Assembly: GCA_963666055.2 (NCBI GenBank) | Contig: CAXWPH010000010.1 | Coordinates: forward strand, 64,001 to 128,000 | Source: Acidobacteriota bacterium | Lineage (GTDB): Bacteria > Acidobacteriota > UBA890 > WLXD01 | Direction of reading: 5' to 3' | DNA: 64,000 bases | Shown here: piece by piece, positions 37,204 to 45,142 of the stretch | Position numbering within the stretch: position 1 is the first letter of the stretch | How the letters are laid out: the number at the start of each line of letters is the position of its first letter | The notes under the pieces: model-generated | Database searches by the model: none | What the model was told of the DNA's origin: nothing | What the model saw: only the letters and a program-made list of their open reading frames with translations | Made by a program: the position numbers and the translations under genes

Positions 37204-37725
37204 TCAGCGCTCAAGCTCGAGGATGGCCGGCTTCCATGCCCTCGGGTCCGACGCCACACCGTGTGCCGGGCTCACTACCTCGACTCGATGAGCGACGAAA
37301 CGCACCAGGACGTAGTCGTCACCGCGGTTGCCCTCGACGTAGAACTCGTCCCACTCCGGCTTCCATCGCCGCGCCTTTTCGTCGGCATCGGTGATCACCC
37401 GCGCCACCCCGGTCAGGGTCACGTAGGCGCCGCTCGACGCGTCGAGGTAGTAGAGCGTGGCGCGCGAATCGTTGGCCAGCTCGCGCACCTTGCGGGTCGA
37501 TTTATTGGTGGCCATCCACACTCTGAAGTCGCTGTCAGCTGGAAAGGGGTCCATGGCTCGTGCCTGCGGTGCGCCGTCGGCATCGAGGGTGATCAAGGCG
37601 CAGTACCGTGCCGCCGTCATCACGGCGTGCGCCGCCTCGGCGATACGGTCGGGCTCTAGCAGGCCGTGGTGAAAGCCTGCCCCCAGAAACACCGACGCCA
37701 CCGCCACCACGAGGGCGCGCGTCAC
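37204..37725 (-). CDS. Pyridoxamine 5'-phosphate oxidase-like FMN-binding split-barrel protein
   Basis: CALITLDADGAPQARAMDP, WMATNKSTRKV, YVTLTG; signal peptide. Confidence 0.85.
   Translation of the reverse strand: MTRALVVAVASVFLGAGFHHGLLEPDRIAEAAHAVMTAARYCALITLDADGAPQARAMDPFPADSDFRVWMATNKSTRKVRELANDSRATLYYLDASSGAYVTLTGVARVITDADEKARRWKPEWDEFYVEGNRGDDYVLVRFVAHRVEVVSPAHGVASDPRAWKPAILELER
37656..37679. repeat. MITE TIR remnant embedded in frame in a CDS
   Basis: CTAG-CAGGCCGTGGTGAAAG-CCTG, identical to the MITE end; encodes GFHHGLL. Confidence 0.7.
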
Positions 37726-39215
37726 TCAGTTCCGCCACCCGTCGCCCGGACCTCGCCGATCGCCGCGCGAATGTCCTCCAGCGCCATGCGCAGACGATCC
37801 GCATGAGCCCTGAGCGGCAAGACGCAGATACGAATCACGAAACGGCCGTCGAGCCGCGTGCCGGTCAGATAGATGCGCCGGCGGGAGTTGATCCGCGCCA
37901 TCAATCGCTGGTTGAGCGCATCGAGATCTTCTCCGGACAACCCCGGCGGCTTCAACCGCCAGGCAAGTATGGTCAGCTGGGGCTCTGCAACAATCTCGAT
38001 GTCGTCGATCTCGCGCAGGCGAGCCGTTATCCAGTCGGTGAGCTCGAACTTCTCCTGCAGGGCGTCCCGATACGGCCCGATGCCGTGACGCTTCAACGGC
38101 AGCCATACCTTGAGACCGCGAAACTCGCGCGAGAGCTCCGGGGAGATCTCACAGAAATCGACCAGATCAGGCTCGTCCTGAAGCGGCGGCAAGTAGTCAG
38201 CGCTGGCTGAGTGCGCTCGCCGCAACGCTTCGCCGTCGCGCACCAGCAGGCTGCCGACACCGTACGGAACGAACAAGCTCTTGTGCGGGTCCAGCACTAC
38301 CGAATCGGCCCGGTGAAGGCCGTGCAGAACCTGCCTGCCGCGCTCTGTAAGCGCAAAGAACCCGCCATAGGAGGCGTCGACGTGAAGCCACAGGCGCTCC
38401 TGCTCGCACAGGTCCGCGAGCTCGTCGAGCGGATCCACTGCGCCGGAGTTCGTGGTTCCCGCACTCGCTGCGACAAGGAACGGTGTGAGGCCGGCGTCGC
38501 GATCCGCGCGGACGGCGCGCAGCAGCGTGTCTGGACGCATCCGATACCGTTCGTCGGTCGGCAGGGAGCGCACCGATGCGATCGGAAACCCCGCCAACAA
38601 AGCCGCTTTGAGCACGCAGTGGTGTACTTGATCGGACGTGTAAATGATGCCGTTCAGGAAGTGCGCTGGCAGCCGCTCCCGGCGCGCCGTGACCAACCCG
38701 CTGAAGTTCGCCAGCGAGCCGCCGCTAGTGAGAAATCCGCCAGCCTCGGGCGGATAGCCGATGATCTGCGCGAACCACTCGATGACGTTGGCCTCGATCT
38801 TCGCCATCACCGGACCGGCCGCAAAGACACCCATGTAGCGGTTGACCGAGTCGTTGATGAACGAGGCGAGGGCCGACTCGAAGACGGCGTTGCCGTTCAC
38901 ATAGGCGAAGTAGCCCGGTGACGCGGTGTTCAGCGATCGCGGGATCGCCTCATCGAACAGCAGGTCGAGCAACTCGTCGAAGGGTGTGCCCTGCTGCGGG
39001 AGCGGCTCATCGAGCGTGCGGGCAAACTCGGTGGCGCCGTCTGTATTGGAGGCGGGCTGCTCGGCGAACGACATTACGTGCGGCACGACACGGGTCACGG
39101 TGGCGTCGATGAGGGCCCGTATCTCGGCCTCGTCGGGCTCGAGAGGCCAGGATCTTTCTGCGGCCGACGTTTGTGGGGCTAGACCCCGAATGTCGTCGTC
39201 GTGTGCTTCGGACAC
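37722..39215 (-). CDS. PLP-dependent group II (aromatic-L-amino-acid-like) decarboxylase
   Basis: TSGGSLAN, AGTTNSGAVDPL, LHVDASYGG, DPHKSLF. Confidence 0.92.
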   Translation of the reverse strand: MSEAHDDDIRGLAPQTSAAERSWPLEPDEAEIRALIDATVTRVVPHVMSFAEQPASNTDGATEFARTLDEPLPQQGTPFDELLDLLFDEAIPRSLNTASPGYFAYVNGNAVFESALASFINDSVNRYMGVFAAGPVMAKIEANVIEWFAQIIGYPPEAGGFLTSGGSLANFSGLVTARRERLPAHFLNGIIYTSDQVHHCVLKAALLAGFPIASVRSLPTDERYRMRPDTLLRAVRADRDAGLTPFLVAASAGTTNSGAVDPLDELADLCEQERLWLHVDASYGGFFALTERGRQVLHGLHRADSVVLDPHKSLFVPYGVGSLLVRDGEALRRAHSASADYLPPLQDEPDLVDFCEISPELSREFRGLKVWLPLKRHGIGPYRDALQEKFELTDWITARLREIDDIEIVAEPQLTILAWRLKPPGLSGEDLDALNQRLMARINSRRRIYLTGTRLDGRFVIRICVLPLRAHADRLRMALEDIRAAIGEVRATGGGTE

Positions 39216-39314
39216 CGCCGCTCCGTCTACAAAGCAACGGCCGCCGAACCGCCGGCGACCTCACTACGGACCCAAGATGGTCGGATGCTACCATGGCGCT
39301 CGTGTGCGGACGCT

Positions 39315-39887
39315 TCACGCGCTACCCGCGCCATGCTTGGCTCTCTCGGAATCCGATACCAATTCTGTACCATCGCCCTGCGCATCGGTGTGCAACGCTG
39401 CGCTCCACTGCGCCGACGCTTTGCGGATCATGCGGGCGTCCTCATGCACGTAACGCATCGTCGTTTTGATGTCCGAGTGGCCCATCGCCCGCTGCGTTCC
39501 CACTAGATCCCGGTACGCCATGAACGTCCCGTAGGTGTGGCGGAAGGTGTGGATCGTGATGTCCTCGGGCAACTCCAACCGAGTCCTTTCTTCCCGCCAC
39601 ATCTTCTGTAGCGTCGATGTGCAGCCAGCCACGAGTTGCAAGTCGCCACGAGCGTTCGCCAACTTCACCAGCTTGCGGAAATGCTTGATCGCCTCGTCCT
39701 CGAGCCAGACGATTCGCTCCTTGGAGCCTTTGCCTATCACCACCAAGTGAGCTCCCGGCGTGTTGACCTTCACGCTCTTGACCGGCAAGCCGGACAACTC
39801 GAAGGCTCGCAGCCCCGTCAGCAGATAGGCCAGCCTCCTTCGTAACCGTGCAGGCCGGCTTGCCGGCGGTGCTCCACCCCAGCGATC
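39315..39887 (-). pseudogene. Tyrosine recombinase/integrase, catalytic domain only
   Basis: LLTGLRAFEL, GKGSKER, HTFRHTYG, MGHSDIKTTMRY; in-frame TGA at 39890-39888 removes the N-terminal domains. Confidence 0.85.
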
Positions 39888-40030
39888 TCAGCCGGAAGCA
39901 GCGCCAGCTTCTAGGTGCGGCCACGGCCGGGCGATGACACTTGCCCCTCCAGGCGGCGAGAGGTACCTTCGCACATCCTCGCGGCCGTGACCTCTTGTGC
40001 ACCGGGTATACAGAAATGGGAGAAACGCGA

Positions 40031-40801
40031 ATGCAGCAACACAAGCCTGCCAAGCTCATATTTGCCCCGGTGGCAGTCTCGCTCCTACTGCTTGCGCAGC
40101 TAGCGATACCAGCATTGGCGGAATCGAGCGTTGCGTCTGCCGGTGCGCCCACCATCCGCAAGGTGGACGTCACCGACGATGAAACGCAGATACTGATCTA
40201 CGGTAAGAATTTCTGTGCCAATCCTGTCGTGAAGCTCTCGACCATCACGCTAGATATCGACTCTGTTGACCTAGGCGGCCCAGAGTTGATCGTCGCAGAT
40301 TTGCCCGAGAATCCTCTGGTTCCGGCAGGCTACCGACTATCGGTAGACTGCGGTGTCAACAACCGCGGCAATGGGCTCCTCGGCTACGTATTCGTCAGCA
40401 TCGGAGACATTGGCCCACGGGGGTACCCGGGGGCAAGCGGTGCGGACGGAAAGGACGGCGCCGATGGGAGCGACGGAGCCACTGGAGCCCCTGGCACTGC
40501 CGGAGCCACCGGGGCGGTCGGTGTTTCGCAATGGGAGCGACTTAAAGGGGCCTGCCTGACCGTCCCCATTGGGGCGATAACGTCGACCGTAGTAACGTGC
40601 ACCGTTGGCAAGAAGCTCTTGGGAGGCGGTTACTTGAAGGCTGACTCGAATGCGTGCAACGTCGATATCGGAGCAGCACATACAACAACCATCCTGTCGA
40701 GCGGTCCAACAACGGATAACGCTTGGAGGCTTTCGTTGTTCAATCAAAGCGGCGTCGTCGTATTCTATTCCGCTTACGCCATCTGCGCGGTCGTCGACTG
40801 A
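40031..40801 (+). CDS. Secreted protein with IPT/TIG-like domain and short collagen-like Gly-X-Y repeat
   Basis: Signal peptide (PALA), ILIYGKNF, GPRGYPGASGADGKDGADGSDGATGAPGTAGATGAVG, C-terminal CTVGKKLLGGG...YAICA. Confidence 0.8.
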   Translation: MQQHKPAKLIFAPVAVSLLLLAQLAIPALAESSVASAGAPTIRKVDVTDDETQILIYGKNFCANPVVKLSTITLDIDSVDLGGPELIVADLPENPLVPAGYRLSVDCGVNNRGNGLLGYVFVSIGDIGPRGYPGASGADGKDGADGSDGATGAPGTAGATGAVGVSQWERLKGACLTVPIGAITSTVVTCTVGKKLLGGGYLKADSNACNVDIGAAHTTTILSSGPTTDNAWRLSLFNQSGVVVFYSAYAICAVVD

Positions 40802-40817
40802 CCGGCAAGCGGTATAA

Positions 40818-41021
40818 CTAGTCCCGACTGTCGACCCCAGCCACCTCAGCAGCCTCGAGCAGTATCACCAGCTGATCCTCGTGGATCTCCGACGGTGTCG
40901 TGGCCAGGTTGACCAGCGACAGGTCGGCCAGCGTGCGGATGTTGCATTGCCGCAGGGCGAGCGACGTAGAGATCCAGATGCCGTCGAGGTGGACGATCTG
41001 CGTAGTCGGGGTGAGCTTCAT
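40818..41021 (-). CDS. Small hypothetical protein, RNAP alpha-CTD/HhH-like
   Basis: LALRQCNIRTLADL resembles the alpha-CTD LxxxxIxTxxDL pattern; no clear RBS. Confidence 0.4.
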   Translation of the reverse strand: MKLTPTTQIVHLDGIWISTSLALRQCNIRTLADLSLVNLATTPSEIHEDQLVILLEAAEVAGVDSRD

Positions 41022-41138
41022 GCGTTGGAGCTAACACCCCCGAAATGGCCGAATACCAAAAAAATACCAACTTCGGTGGTTTTAGGGGTGTTTTGATACC
41101 CTTAGGAGCCCCCAACCACGCTGGTATCACTGAATCGT

Positions 41139-41837
41139 ATGTGCGGACGCTTCACGCTTCGGACCCCGGCCAACATCGTCAAAGACATGTTCGGCCTCGA
41201 GCCGTTGCCCGAACTCCGACCGCGCTACAACATCGCGCCGACGCAGCCGATTGCCGTCGTTCGTTCGGAGGACGCGGAGCGCCGTTTGCATATGCTGCGG
41301 TGGGGCCTCATTCCATGGTGGGCCAAGGACGTCTCCATCGGTAACCGCTTGATCAACGCCCGCGCCGAGACCGTTGCCACCAAGCCCGCATATCGTGAGT
41401 CGTTCGAGCAACGACGCTGCCTGATTCCCGCCGATGGCTTCTACGAATGGCAGCGCCTCGGCAATGGCCGCAAGCAGCCCTTCCATGTCGATCTTTCCAC
41501 CGGTGACCCTTTCGCATTCGCCGGTGTCTGGGATCGTTGGCGCGATCCGGTCAGCGATGCTGTCACCGAGTCGTGTGCTCTCATCACCATCGAGGCGAAC
41601 TCGGTGGTGGCGCCGATCCATCACCGCATGCCGGTAATGCTGCCGCCATCCAGCTTTGCCGCTTGGCTCGAGCCCGATGCCCAACCGGAGGGGTTGCAAG
41701 AGATGTTGCGCCCGATTGCCGGCGAGCGAGTGCGCGCCACACCGGTGAGCGTCTTGGTCAACCGTCCCGAGAACGACGACCCGCGCTGCCTCGACCCGGT
41801 CGTTGCGCCTTCTCTGCAGCCCACCTTGTTTGGCTGA
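41139..41837 (+). CDS. yedK: SOS response-associated peptidase (SRAP/YedK/HMCES), abasic-site protection
   Basis: MCGRF, RYNIAPTQ, WGLIPWW, INARAET, PADGFYEW, HHRMP. Confidence 0.95.
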   Translation: MCGRFTLRTPANIVKDMFGLEPLPELRPRYNIAPTQPIAVVRSEDAERRLHMLRWGLIPWWAKDVSIGNRLINARAETVATKPAYRESFEQRRCLIPADGFYEWQRLGNGRKQPFHVDLSTGDPFAFAGVWDRWRDPVSDAVTESCALITIEANSVVAPIHHRMPVMLPPSSFAAWLEPDAQPEGLQEMLRPIAGERVRATPVSVLVNRPENDDPRCLDPVVAPSLQPTLFG

Positions 41838-41975
41838 GCGTAGACGGGACGCGGCGTCAAGAACGCGGCTGGCCACACCCGACCACCGTACTGGGCGTGC
41901 GCGCACTTGGGGATTGTCCCGCCGACTGGCGGCTGCCTATTCTGCGGGCTGTCTCACCTGTTCCCGGAGTCGTCA

Positions 41976-42977
41976 ATGGCCGCAGCTCGCCCGAGCATCT
42001 ACACCACCTGTCCAGAGTTCGACCGCGACCGACGGCGGTCGATCGTCGAGCGCGTCATCGAGACGGCCCAATGGTGTGAGGCTCACGGTCACGCCGGGAT
42101 GCTGATCCGCTCGAACAATCGCCTCGTAGACCCCTGGACGATCGCCCAACTTCTGCTCCACGAGACCGAATCCCTGCAACCGGTGGTCACCGTGCAGCCG
42201 CTCTACATGCACCCGTACACGGTGGCCAAGAAGGTGGCCACGCTAGCTAGCGTGTACGGCCGCTGCCCGGATCTGTACCTGGTGGCGGACGGCTCGACGG
42301 CCGACCTGCTGGCGCTCGATGACCGAGTGGCACACGACGACCGATATCGCCGTTTGACCGAGTACGCCGAAGTCATCACCGCCCTGCTCACCGCGGTACG
42401 CCCCGTTACCCACGTTGGCGAATGCTATCGGGTCTACAAGCCCGCCACGTTGACTCCCCTGACCGACGAGCAAAGGCCGCGCTTCTTCATAGCGGCGAGC
42501 AGCGGCGCCGGGCGGCGGGCAGCGCAGGAGCTCGGAGCACGGTCGGTGTCTTCATTGGGTCTCGGCGACGGCGCCGACTGCCTCTTGTTGGGACTGGTGG
42601 TTCGCGCCAGCAGTGAAGAAGCTTGGGAAGTAGCCCGCGCGCGCTTCCCCACCGACGCGGCGGGCCGCCTGGCGCACGGCTTGGAGATGGCCTGGAGCGA
42701 CTCGATCTGGAGCGAGCGACTGCGCGGACTGGCCGACTCGAACACAAGCGACAGCGAAGGATTGTGGCTCGGGCCGTTCGAGAATCGGCAGGCGCGCAGC
42801 CCTTATCTCGTCGGCGACACCCGAACAGCGGCGCGTCGGCTACAAAAGGCCCTCGGCGCCGGAGCCCGGACTTTCTTTCTGGAGCCGCCGCATTGTCGCG
42901 CCGATGTCGAGCAGGCCAACTACGCGTTCGAGGGCGCCTGGACGCGCTTTCAGTCACCCCTCACACTGACCGCCTGA
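41976..42977 (+). CDS. LLM-class flavin-dependent oxidoreductase
   Basis: IYTTCP, LVDPW, VQPLYMHPYTVAK, RYRRLTEY, PYLVGD. Confidence 0.8.
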   Translation: MAAARPSIYTTCPEFDRDRRRSIVERVIETAQWCEAHGHAGMLIRSNNRLVDPWTIAQLLLHETESLQPVVTVQPLYMHPYTVAKKVATLASVYGRCPDLYLVADGSTADLLALDDRVAHDDRYRRLTEYAEVITALLTAVRPVTHVGECYRVYKPATLTPLTDEQRPRFFIAASSGAGRRAAQELGARSVSSLGLGDGADCLLLGLVVRASSEEAWEVARARFPTDAAGRLAHGLEMAWSDSIWSERLRGLADSNTSDSEGLWLGPFENRQARSPYLVGDTRTAARRLQKALGAGARTFFLEPPHCRADVEQANYAFEGAWTRFQSPLTLTA

Positions 42978-43017
42978 CCAGCGCTACGATCCGCTCCGTC
43001 GGAAATGCTAGACGGAC

Positions 43018-43042
43018 CTAGCGTCCTGAAGAACTCTGCTAG
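43018..43042. repeat. 17-bp IS-end-like micro-insertion between CTAG direct repeats
   Basis: CTAG-CGTCCTGAAGAACTCTG-CTAG; shares CTGAAGAACTCTGCTA with 13710-13725. Confidence 0.55.
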
Positions 43043-43482
43043 GCGCGCGCCTCGATAGCGTCGGCGAGCCGTCTGAGCCCTTGCTTGGTGAGCACACGCG
43101 CCGTCATGTCGAGCAGGCGTTGCCCGAGTCCGGCGAGGCGGCCGCCGACCTGGATATCGAGGTCGTACTCGAGCACAGTGTGTTCGCCGTCGTCGTGCAG
43201 CCGGATGCCTCCACTGCCCTCGATGAACCCGGGACCACCGCGTCCCTCGATACGCATCGAGTACGACTCCGGGGGACACAGGTCGTCGAGCTTCACACGG
43301 CCTTCGAAGCTGCCCTGAACAGGGCCAACGCCGAGCACCAACGCACCGGCGAACTCGTTGTCCCCCACCTGCTTCAGACGACGAAAGCCTGGCAACGTGC
43401 CGGCGAGAACCTTCGGGTCCAGTAGTGATTCCCACACGATCTGCCGCGAGGCAGCTATTTTCTGTCGACCTGACACCTTCAT
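43039..43482 (-). CDS. coxG: CoxG-like SRPBCC protein
   Basis: VWESLLDPKVLAGTLPG, GVGPVQG, VGGRLAGLGQRL. Confidence 0.85.
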   Translation of the reverse strand: MKVSGRQKIAASRQIVWESLLDPKVLAGTLPGFRRLKQVGDNEFAGALVLGVGPVQGSFEGRVKLDDLCPPESYSMRIEGRGGPGFIEGSGGIRLHDDGEHTVLEYDLDIQVGGRLAGLGQRLLDMTARVLTKQGLRRLADAIEARA

Positions 43483-43544
43483 GACGCCTCCATTCTACGT
43501 CCTCCGCGGTTCGGGTAGACTGCGCCGGGCGAGGAAAGGATCCC

Positions 43545-45142
43545 ATGACCGAGGTGGTGTACAGCATCGACGAGCAGCCACGGCATTGGTGGGAGACGCT
43601 GCTCTACGGCTGGCAGCACACGCTCGTCGACATCTCCCCTTTCGTTCTTCCGCTGGCGGTGGCAACAGCCATCGGGCTGGACGATGGTGCGCGTGCGGCG
43701 CTGATCAACTACTCGCTCATCGCCATGGGGCTGGCGACGCTGATTCAGACCACTGTCGGGAACCGACTGCCGATTGTTCAAGGACCGTCGGCGACGCTCA
43801 CCGGCACGCTCGCTCCCCTAGCAGGCCGTGGTGAAAGTGTGGTGGGTCTGGTTATGGCGAGTTGGGGCCAGATGCAAGGCGGCCTGACACAGGCGATGCC
43901 CCGGCCATCGTCCAGGAAGGCCAACGCCGCAAATGGCCCCAAATCGCCGTAACCCTTCGGGCGACAGGGGGTTGCGCGCGTATCCTGCGTCGTTCCTCGT
44001 CAACGATGCGGTAACCATCGCCTCCTCCTCTCTCCTTGCCTCCACTTCGCAAGACCCTGTCGCCAGACCCACCACACTTTCACCACGGCCTGCTGGGTGC
44101 CCAACTCGGACCGGCGGCCATGTGGGGCGCAGCGTTCGTCGGCGCGGCGGTCGAGGCGCTCATCGGCAGTACCGGCGCGCTCGGCGCGCTGCGACGTTTC
44201 TTCCCGCCGGTAGTCTCGGGCGTCGTCGTTGTGACTATTGGGCTGTCGCTCGGATAACTCGCGGTACGCCTGAGCGTCGGCGACGGCAGCGCCATCAACC
44301 TCGGGTTCGCGGTAGCGACCATCCTGTTGGTGGTGGTGTTGCAGGTGGCCGGCCGCCGTGTCGCCGGGGGTCTGCTATCGCGCGCGGCCATATTCGTGTC
44401 GATCTGGGTCGTGGGGCTCGGGGGAGGCAGCCTGCTGGACCGCGTCGACTGGAATCTGGTGGCCACGAAGCCCTGGTTTCAAGCACCCCGAGCGTTCCCG
44501 TTCGGCGGGCCGGGATTCGGATGGGAATTTGGCACTGTAGCGATCGTCGCAGTACTGGCCGGGTACTTCGGATCCATGGTGGAGTCAATCGGCGACTACG
44601 TCGCCACCTGCTCGGTAGTCGACGAGCCGCTTACCAGGCGTCATGTCGACCGTGGCATCGCCGCCGAGGGAGTGGGGTGCCTGCTGGCGCTGTCGGTGGG
44701 CGGGTTACCGTGCACCAGCTATACCCAGAACATCGGCATCATCAAAGTCACCGGTGTCGGCAGTAGGGTCGTCGTGCGCGTAGCGGCGGTCATTCTGCTG
44801 CTTTATGGGCTGTGCCCGAAGTTCGGCGCCCTGCTGGTAGCGTTGCCACGGCCGGTACTCGGCGGCGTGTTCGTGATCGTTTGCGGCCTGATCGCGACCA
44901 CCGGCATCGCCATGCTGGCGAGTGCCCACCAGGACGACGGCGCAACATTGATCGCCGGCATCACGCTGGTGGTGGCGTTGGGACTGCCCACATATGCTCA
45001 GTCAGTGCTCGGTCCCGCCTGGCTCAAGTCGTTGCCGCAGCTGGCCCGGCTCCTGGTGACCAACCCGGTTGTACTGTCGGTGCTGCTGGCGGTATCCCTC
45101 AACGCCGCCTTGGGCGCCATACCGACCGCTCCCGAAGCGTGA
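43545..45142 (+). pseudogene. Uracil/xanthine (NCS2) permease disrupted by MITE E and a nonsense codon
   Basis: GWQH, GNRLPIVQGPS, FPPVVSG, ESIGD, SYTQNIG; 275-bp insertion (frameshift) plus TAA at 44255-44257. Confidence 0.9.
43818..44096 (+). mobile_element. MITE copy E (271 bp) inside the permease gene
   Basis: CTAG...CTGG flanks; removing the element restores GTLAPLGAQLGPAAMWG. Confidence 0.92.

Follow-up and report, generated by a model that had tools for sequence, protein, structure and literature searches.

An Acidobacteriota bacterium carries, at the start of its SRAP/YedK gene, a 1.8-kb segment left over from a mobile element that has decayed. The arrangement is real, precisely bounded and repeated in two genera; it is of a known kind, and the element is dead in the genome analyzed here. 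The explanation that we favor, as the probable one, is that a tyrosine-integrase element entered the first codons of the SRAP gene, at a site that has been used more than once, and that it was grounded there while its end was kept as the 5′ region of the gene. In the following, the window is the whole stretch of 64,000 nucleotides that was analyzed, and G000 is the genome that carries it, in an assembly of 5.73 Mb that is 95.7% complete.

The repeat pair and the empty site

An exact 18-mer, TGTGCGGACGCTTCACGC, is present in two copies, at 39303–39320 and 41140–41157, and a third copy was absent from the 5.73-Mb genome when up to two mismatches were allowed. The base 5′ of the 18-mer is G in the left copy and A in the right copy. 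The left att site (39302..39320, plus strand), defined by the genome repeat search and the empty site in the relative G004, is a stranded SRAP start that reads GTG-TGC-GGA-CGC-TTC-ACG. It has the GTG-N11-CAC form, the inverted-core shape found at most sites of this integrase family. The right att site (41139..41157, plus strand), defined in the same manner, carries an ATG start rebuilt with an A from the element. The first-pass annotation had described this pair, with GTG on the left, ATG on the right and TGCTACCAT 7 nt before the GTG, and had credited the element with the A of the start codon. Its coordinates were confirmed, the pair proved to be unique in the genome, and the A indeed precedes only the right copy.

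Exact repeats of at least 18 nt within 5 kb are common in G000 (639 runs, the printed ones being mostly duplicated genes), so the 18-mer alone is little proof and relatives are required. In G004, which belongs to the same genus, the DNA matches the window from 37798 to 39320 and then directly from 41140 to 42975, and the SRAP gene starts with GTG, with TGCTACCAT 7 nt upstream. Given this base-exact empty site, the repeats are an att pair. The same alignment bears out the earlier proposals that the 5′ end of SRAP is the attB site and that a relative would join 39320 to 41158. The pair of direct end repeats, their uninterrupted single copy in G004 and a tyrosine recombinase gene adjoining one att site are all features of an integrative element. 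A chance duplication or an assembly artefact, unconnected with the integrase, could appeal to the frequency of exact 18-mers within 5 kb, but it is hardly credible: the G004 empty site already contradicts it, the same anatomy is present in G008, a genome of another genus, in the related elements L070 and L071, too, the stop codon of the integrase lies over the core or directly next to it, and the contigs of sequencing runs span the island unchanged.

The island is reproduced without differences in the contigs of runs X1, X2 and X3, which may include the source data. The 39320–41158 joint was not among the joints listed for any of the eight public runs; these are assembled contigs, which drop rare variants, so its absence says nothing about excision. 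One 151-nt record in X10 terminates at 39320, which is uninformative.

The SRAP gene downstream of the island (41139..41837, plus strand) is intact and encodes 232 amino acids. It is the only SRAP copy in G000, and the presence of both the PF02586 domain (E 1e-72) and Cys2 identifies its product as a SRAP/YedK abasic-site protein. On the other side of the island lies the host gene for a PLP-dependent decarboxylase (37722..39215, minus strand; PF00282, E 6e-64), which is divergent from SRAP in the empty site and syntenic in eight relatives. The minus strand contains a G+C-rich hairpin with a T-rich tail (39239–39260) in the interval that separates the decarboxylase start from the SRAP promoter motif. 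Similar hairpins in G002, G003, G004, G006 and G010 indicate that it is host-derived; it has no Rfam match, and Rfam gave no matches across 37500–44300. REP-like repeats (CTAGCAGGCCGTGGTG...), both direct and inverted, are located at 37656–37675, 43817–43851 and 44063–44097, with many copies genome-wide.

Decay of the integrase and contents of the island

The gene adjoining the left att site is a tyrosine integrase remnant (39315..39835, minus strand; PF00589, E 1e-16), whose TGA stop codon (39315–39317) falls within the left repeat and thus within the att core. The first-pass annotation had recognized both the catalytic domain and the position of the stop codon, and to this we add that the gene is truncated. 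The remnant keeps the catalytic motifs R, K, HxxR, H and Y, but its N-terminal half and start codon are gone. It aligns to residues 187–355 only of the 357-aa homolog P0001 (73% identity), the first ~186 residues being absent in G000, and no in-frame ATG, GTG or TTG was found upstream of the catalytic Arg. Neither a full-length relative of the integrase nor an intact helper was found in the G000 assembly. The island thus lacks the complete, expressible integrase and the excisionase of an autonomous element. At the cut point of the integrase, a 37-bp piece (39832–39868) resembles part of the interior of an unrelated gene (97%, G000:C15:197722; similarly L105 and L108), which suggests that a gene fragment was captured during decay.

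L071, a complete relative of 8.5 kb at an intergenic site, shows the ancestral plan of the element. It contains the integrase, an HTH_17 excisionase-like gene, a Prim-Pol/DUF927 protein of 987 aa and a 67-aa ORF, and its end repeat is 11 bp long. The DNA homology of the window to L071 stops at 39835, before the HTH_17 gene. With its gene set, its size and its end repeats, L071 resembles the small Prim-Pol-bearing integrative elements, or phage-satellite-like islands. The island in the window differs from this class in that it keeps no replication genes and in that no relative was found in viral contigs, where an alignment search gave one distant match, and the end pattern gave two matches with no integrase relative nearby. 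L071 itself (L071:2665–11232), which also carries GDSL-like cargo, is inserted in a palindromic TGTAT-N5-ATACA word, which resembles a GntR-type operator; the empty word is located in G000 on contig C7 near 201,640.

Paired TACCA-type repeats within the 3′ end of the integrase gene (39355..39373, plus strand) recur in other elements of the family and are predicted to be arm-type binding sites. ATACCAA direct repeats at the far end (41053..41070, plus strand), likewise predicted arm-type sites, align with TGATACC repeats that other far ends carry. Between them lies a cargo gene (40031..40801, plus strand; PF01391, E 4e-7) with possible upstream starts; its product is hydrophobic at the N-terminus, contains a short collagen-like repeat and has a 46% paralog on contig C7. 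The cargo gene is followed by the 67-aa ORF (40818..41021, minus strand), which adjoins the far end in the complete relative of the element. About seven further copies or fragments of this ORF are found in G000, and its product gave a helix-hairpin-helix-like lead only, with atlas matches of 0.86–0.89, under 0.9.

Occupancy of the SRAP start and its new 5′ region

SRAP was found in 9 of the 11 genomes of the family, G000 included; the query used detected none in G001 and G009. In four of these nine (G000, G002, G003 and G008), element ends are located at the same base. G002 and G003, of the same genus as G000, each carry different DNA at the SRAP position, 2.8 kb long in G002 and 2.0 kb in G003; both islands end in a window-like far end and ATG, and both lack the integrase and the left repeat. 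The G002 remnant holds an RtcB RNA ligase gene (L046:15409–16647), and the RtcB-like counterpart of G000 lies elsewhere (C7:114,869–116,130, 80% DNA identity). G008 has two identical copies of the SRAP-start pattern, on different contigs (C248 and C110). The first is the SRAP gene, with ATG behind a related far end. The second, at the syntenic decarboxylase locus, consists of the promoter motif, ATG-TGC-GGA-CGC-TTC-ACA and then the last 31 codons of the integrase, a stub with 64.5% amino acid and 80% nucleotide identity to the same integrase. In G005, G006, G007 and G010, the decarboxylase gene adjoins SRAP and there are no element ends. Since the motif lies 54 nt (G006) and 72 nt (G010) before the start, G004 is the only base-exact control. 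Across the phylum, the SRAP-start pattern matched in 84 of 401 genomes, and two identical copies were found in G000 and G008 only; the other genomes with two matches have non-identical pairs. A second match in G005 was discarded, as no SRAP start is present there.

A host tree of four genes grouped G000 (occupied) with G002 (occupied) and G003 (occupied) with G004 (empty), with support of 100/99, and G008 (occupied) with G007 (empty), with 87/91. To explain this patchy occupancy, no fewer than three gains or losses must have taken place at a single base. In a tree built on ends of ~100 nt, the SRAP-linked far ends of all four genomes form one group (80/84). The far end of G008 is 62% identical to that of G000, versus 48% for the far end of G003, the reverse of host relatedness, which favors a separate arrival in G008, with modest support from a short sequence. 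The integrase-side ends of G000 and G008 were not resolved as a clade (53/86) in a tree that omits the closest integrase remnant, from G004.

The insertion also exchanged the DNA in front of the gene. TGCTACCAT, an extended −10-like motif (39286..39294, plus strand), is a predicted leaderless promoter, and it is also found 6 nt before the stranded ATG in G008. Within the order, 8 of 12 unoccupied genomes have TAnnnT 6–7 nt upstream of the start; it is absent from that position in all 6 more distant genomes and at all 4 occupied loci. This spacing in the unoccupied genomes makes it likely that the native SRAP promoter is leaderless, and the earlier claim that such a motif was left stranded on the left agrees with the counts. 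On the element side, the extended −10-like motif TGATACCCT (41094..41102, plus strand), located 36 nt upstream of the SRAP ATG, is the foremost candidate for a replacement promoter: TGATAC(C/G)CT occurs 35–37 nt before the ATG in all four occupied far ends, against a background of 0.1 per kb. It may equally be an extra arm site, given its likeness to the arm repeats; among non-SRAP far ends, 8 of 10 contain something similar at a greater distance from the core. The promoter swap that had been proposed has in its favor this candidate extended −10, conserved in every occupied far end. Against it, a sigma-70 scan of 39100–41300 predicted no promoters, and none of the four occupied loci has a Shine-Dalgarno word before the rebuilt ATG. 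In all four, ATG-Cys2 is rebuilt, a restoration of the start of the type seen at dusA.

Purifying selection on SRAP is maintained. Between G000 and G002, both occupied, dN/dS is 0.26 (22 nonsynonymous and 26 synonymous changes; Fisher p 7e-6 versus neutrality). This is somewhat higher than the 0.13–0.17 of other pairs, and three of four neighboring genes also tend higher in this close pair.

Elements that regulate gene integrity are known from mutL, comK, spsM and similar genes. The SRAP island resembles them in its insertion inside a DNA-repair/stress-response gene and in its precise empty site. However, integration does not inactivate SRAP, which is intact when the element is integrated. An active regulatory switch of this kind, in which damage-induced excision would restore the leaderless promoter and alter SRAP expression, is very unlikely. 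Both att cores and both predicted arm regions do survive in G000, the empty state exists in G004, and SRAP is reported to act on abasic sites via Cys2 (PMC6821365). On the other hand, the integrase is truncated and without a start codon, with no intact helper found in G000, the left repeat is gone in G002 and G003, the G008 integrase is down to 31 codons, and SRAP is full-length in both states. With SRAP intact in the presence or absence of the element and with a broken integrase, gene integrity is not being switched on and off, and the analogy with mutL, comK and splB drawn in the first-pass annotation is weak. Given also that related integrases occupy many other sites, the element in G000 is likely a fixed, grounded relic rather than a working switch.

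Targets of the integrase family and use of the SRAP site

An alignment search of 26 genomes of the order yielded 19 integrase matches at E ≤1e-40, in seven genomes, and four full-length homologs share 66–73% identity. A scan of genome contigs gave six distant integrases (23–37%), and 26 of 28 metagenome loci were distant and two close. It had been expected that integrase homologs would consistently sit at split SRAP starts. This failed: none of the 18 genomic matches outside the window and neither of the two close metagenomic homologs lies at a SRAP start, and no intact integrase was found among the occupied loci. At the family level the targets are unrelated, and the integrases do not form a clade dedicated to one target gene, as would be expected of an island of the dusA type.

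Among the integrase C-termini found, the nearest (83% over 64 aa) belongs to a 13-kb remnant in G004 (C2:5697414), at a non-SRAP site with a 12-bp end repeat; this remnant, L070, L071 and L031 are each at other sites. In a sister subclade, eight near-identical integrase ends (94–99% DNA identity) are located at eight different GTG-N9-11-CAC sites in G004 and G007, and GTG[AT]-N9-[AT]CAC has 324 matches in G000. All of this speaks for an explanation without a SRAP-preferring lineage, in which a family of relaxed specificity would hit many GTG-N11-CAC palindromes and the SRAP start by chance, the survivors being ends that restore ATG, and the patchiness reflecting one or two old insertions followed by excision or allele exchange. 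We regard this as rather unlikely, though deserving of weight. The same base is occupied in two genera, by related far ends with a proximal TGATACCCT-type motif that is absent at that position in all 10 non-SRAP far ends. Moreover, the integrase-side arm matches SRAP beyond the 7-bp overlap (18/18 nt in G000 and 22/23 in G008), whereas the paired ends of the promiscuous subclade share, by eye, 6–8 nt (three pairs) or 16 nt (one pair).

The ends suggest a narrower, SRAP-using sublineage, known from ends only; as no intact integrase was found at a SRAP site, a dedicated lineage is deduced from ends of ~100 nt. In the explanation that we favor, a decayed element at a repeatedly used site, the integrase was most likely of the lambda type and would have followed the general mechanism of these enzymes. 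It would have bound inverted GTG/CAC half-sites around SRAP codons 1–6 and, we infer, exchanged strands within CGGACGC, with the result that the native start and its predicted promoter would be stranded at the left end and ATG-Cys2 rebuilt at the right. Since the element end reads ATG-TG, Met1-Cys2 is rebuilt, and this matters because YedK/SRAP crosslinks abasic sites through Cys2 (PMC6821365). With an ATG and an outward-facing extended −10 at the far end, integration would not kill SRAP, and the element-borne motif likely now drives the gene. One sublineage of this fast target-changing family would have used the SRAP site more than once, at least once per genus in two genera. Deletions would later have taken xis and the replication genes, together with the whole integrase or half of it, the last ~50–100 bp of the far end being kept, likely because SRAP now depends on them.

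A more ambitious version is conceivable, in which an integrase sublineage specialized on the SRAP Cys2 codon swaps in its own promoter and controls abasic-site protection, intact members excising on damage and decayed members leaving the att end as a permanent promoter, repeatedly, and independently in two genera. We consider it decidedly improbable. If true, such a switch would matter more, but the evidence points to a relic.

According to their description, dusA-associated integrase islands enter the 5′ end of dusA, strand the old end and supply a replacement with putative promoter elements, and their integrases are mostly target-specific (PMC4482086). The SRAP island likewise strands the old 5′ end and supplies a replacement. 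It differs in its target, in a crossover at codons 1–6, with the consequence that only a promoter region and the A of the start codon come from the element, without a new β-strand, and in an integrase family that uses many sites. It works like the dusA islands but is not a member of them, being set apart by its target. Domesticated or grounded elements are described as undergoing deletions that remove att sites and core genes but spare some other parts (PMC13626063); here, unlike in those cases, the part kept appears to be the att end that bears the start of a host gene. SRAP/yedK was not found as an integration target in the literature searched, including the available portions of PMC13626063, PMC8138268 and PMC12424338. 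As the TIGER/Islander compilations, which lie outside this search, may list SRAP, the novelty of the target is provisional. The Srap of strand-biased circularizing elements (SE-associated recombination auxiliary protein) shares the name only and is unrelated to PF02586 (PMC10214605).

The present analysis adds SRAP/YedK to the host genes whose start serves as an attachment site. It also captures domestication in series, in four genomes where little survives except the att end with the start codon. In addition, it brings to light an integrase family whose targets change fast and whose near-identical copies occupy unrelated sites, a case relevant to how tyrosine integrases gain new specificity.

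Several further loci of the family deserve mention. Near-identical elements of one subclade lie at unrelated sites in two genera (G007:C2:774135/814209, G007:C2:4351614/C1:18173, G007:C1:708235/728120 and G004:C2:2319806/2774643; L126–L141). By eye, each copy repeats the 6–8 nt core of its own site at both ends, like a target-site duplication, which is not expected of a strictly homology-dependent integrase. The ends of the G004 pair are 455 kb apart and in an unexpected order. A second site is common to G000, as a remnant (C15 near 462,240 and 460,508), and G004, with a full-length integrase (C1:24,950 and C2:25,007), and belongs to another subclade of the same integrase family. Finally, in a distant subclade of ~35% identity, L045 and L043 (G007:C2:3,813,700 and 468,100) are inserted at the same motif inside two genes, which we take from the translated motif to be serine/threonine-kinase-like.
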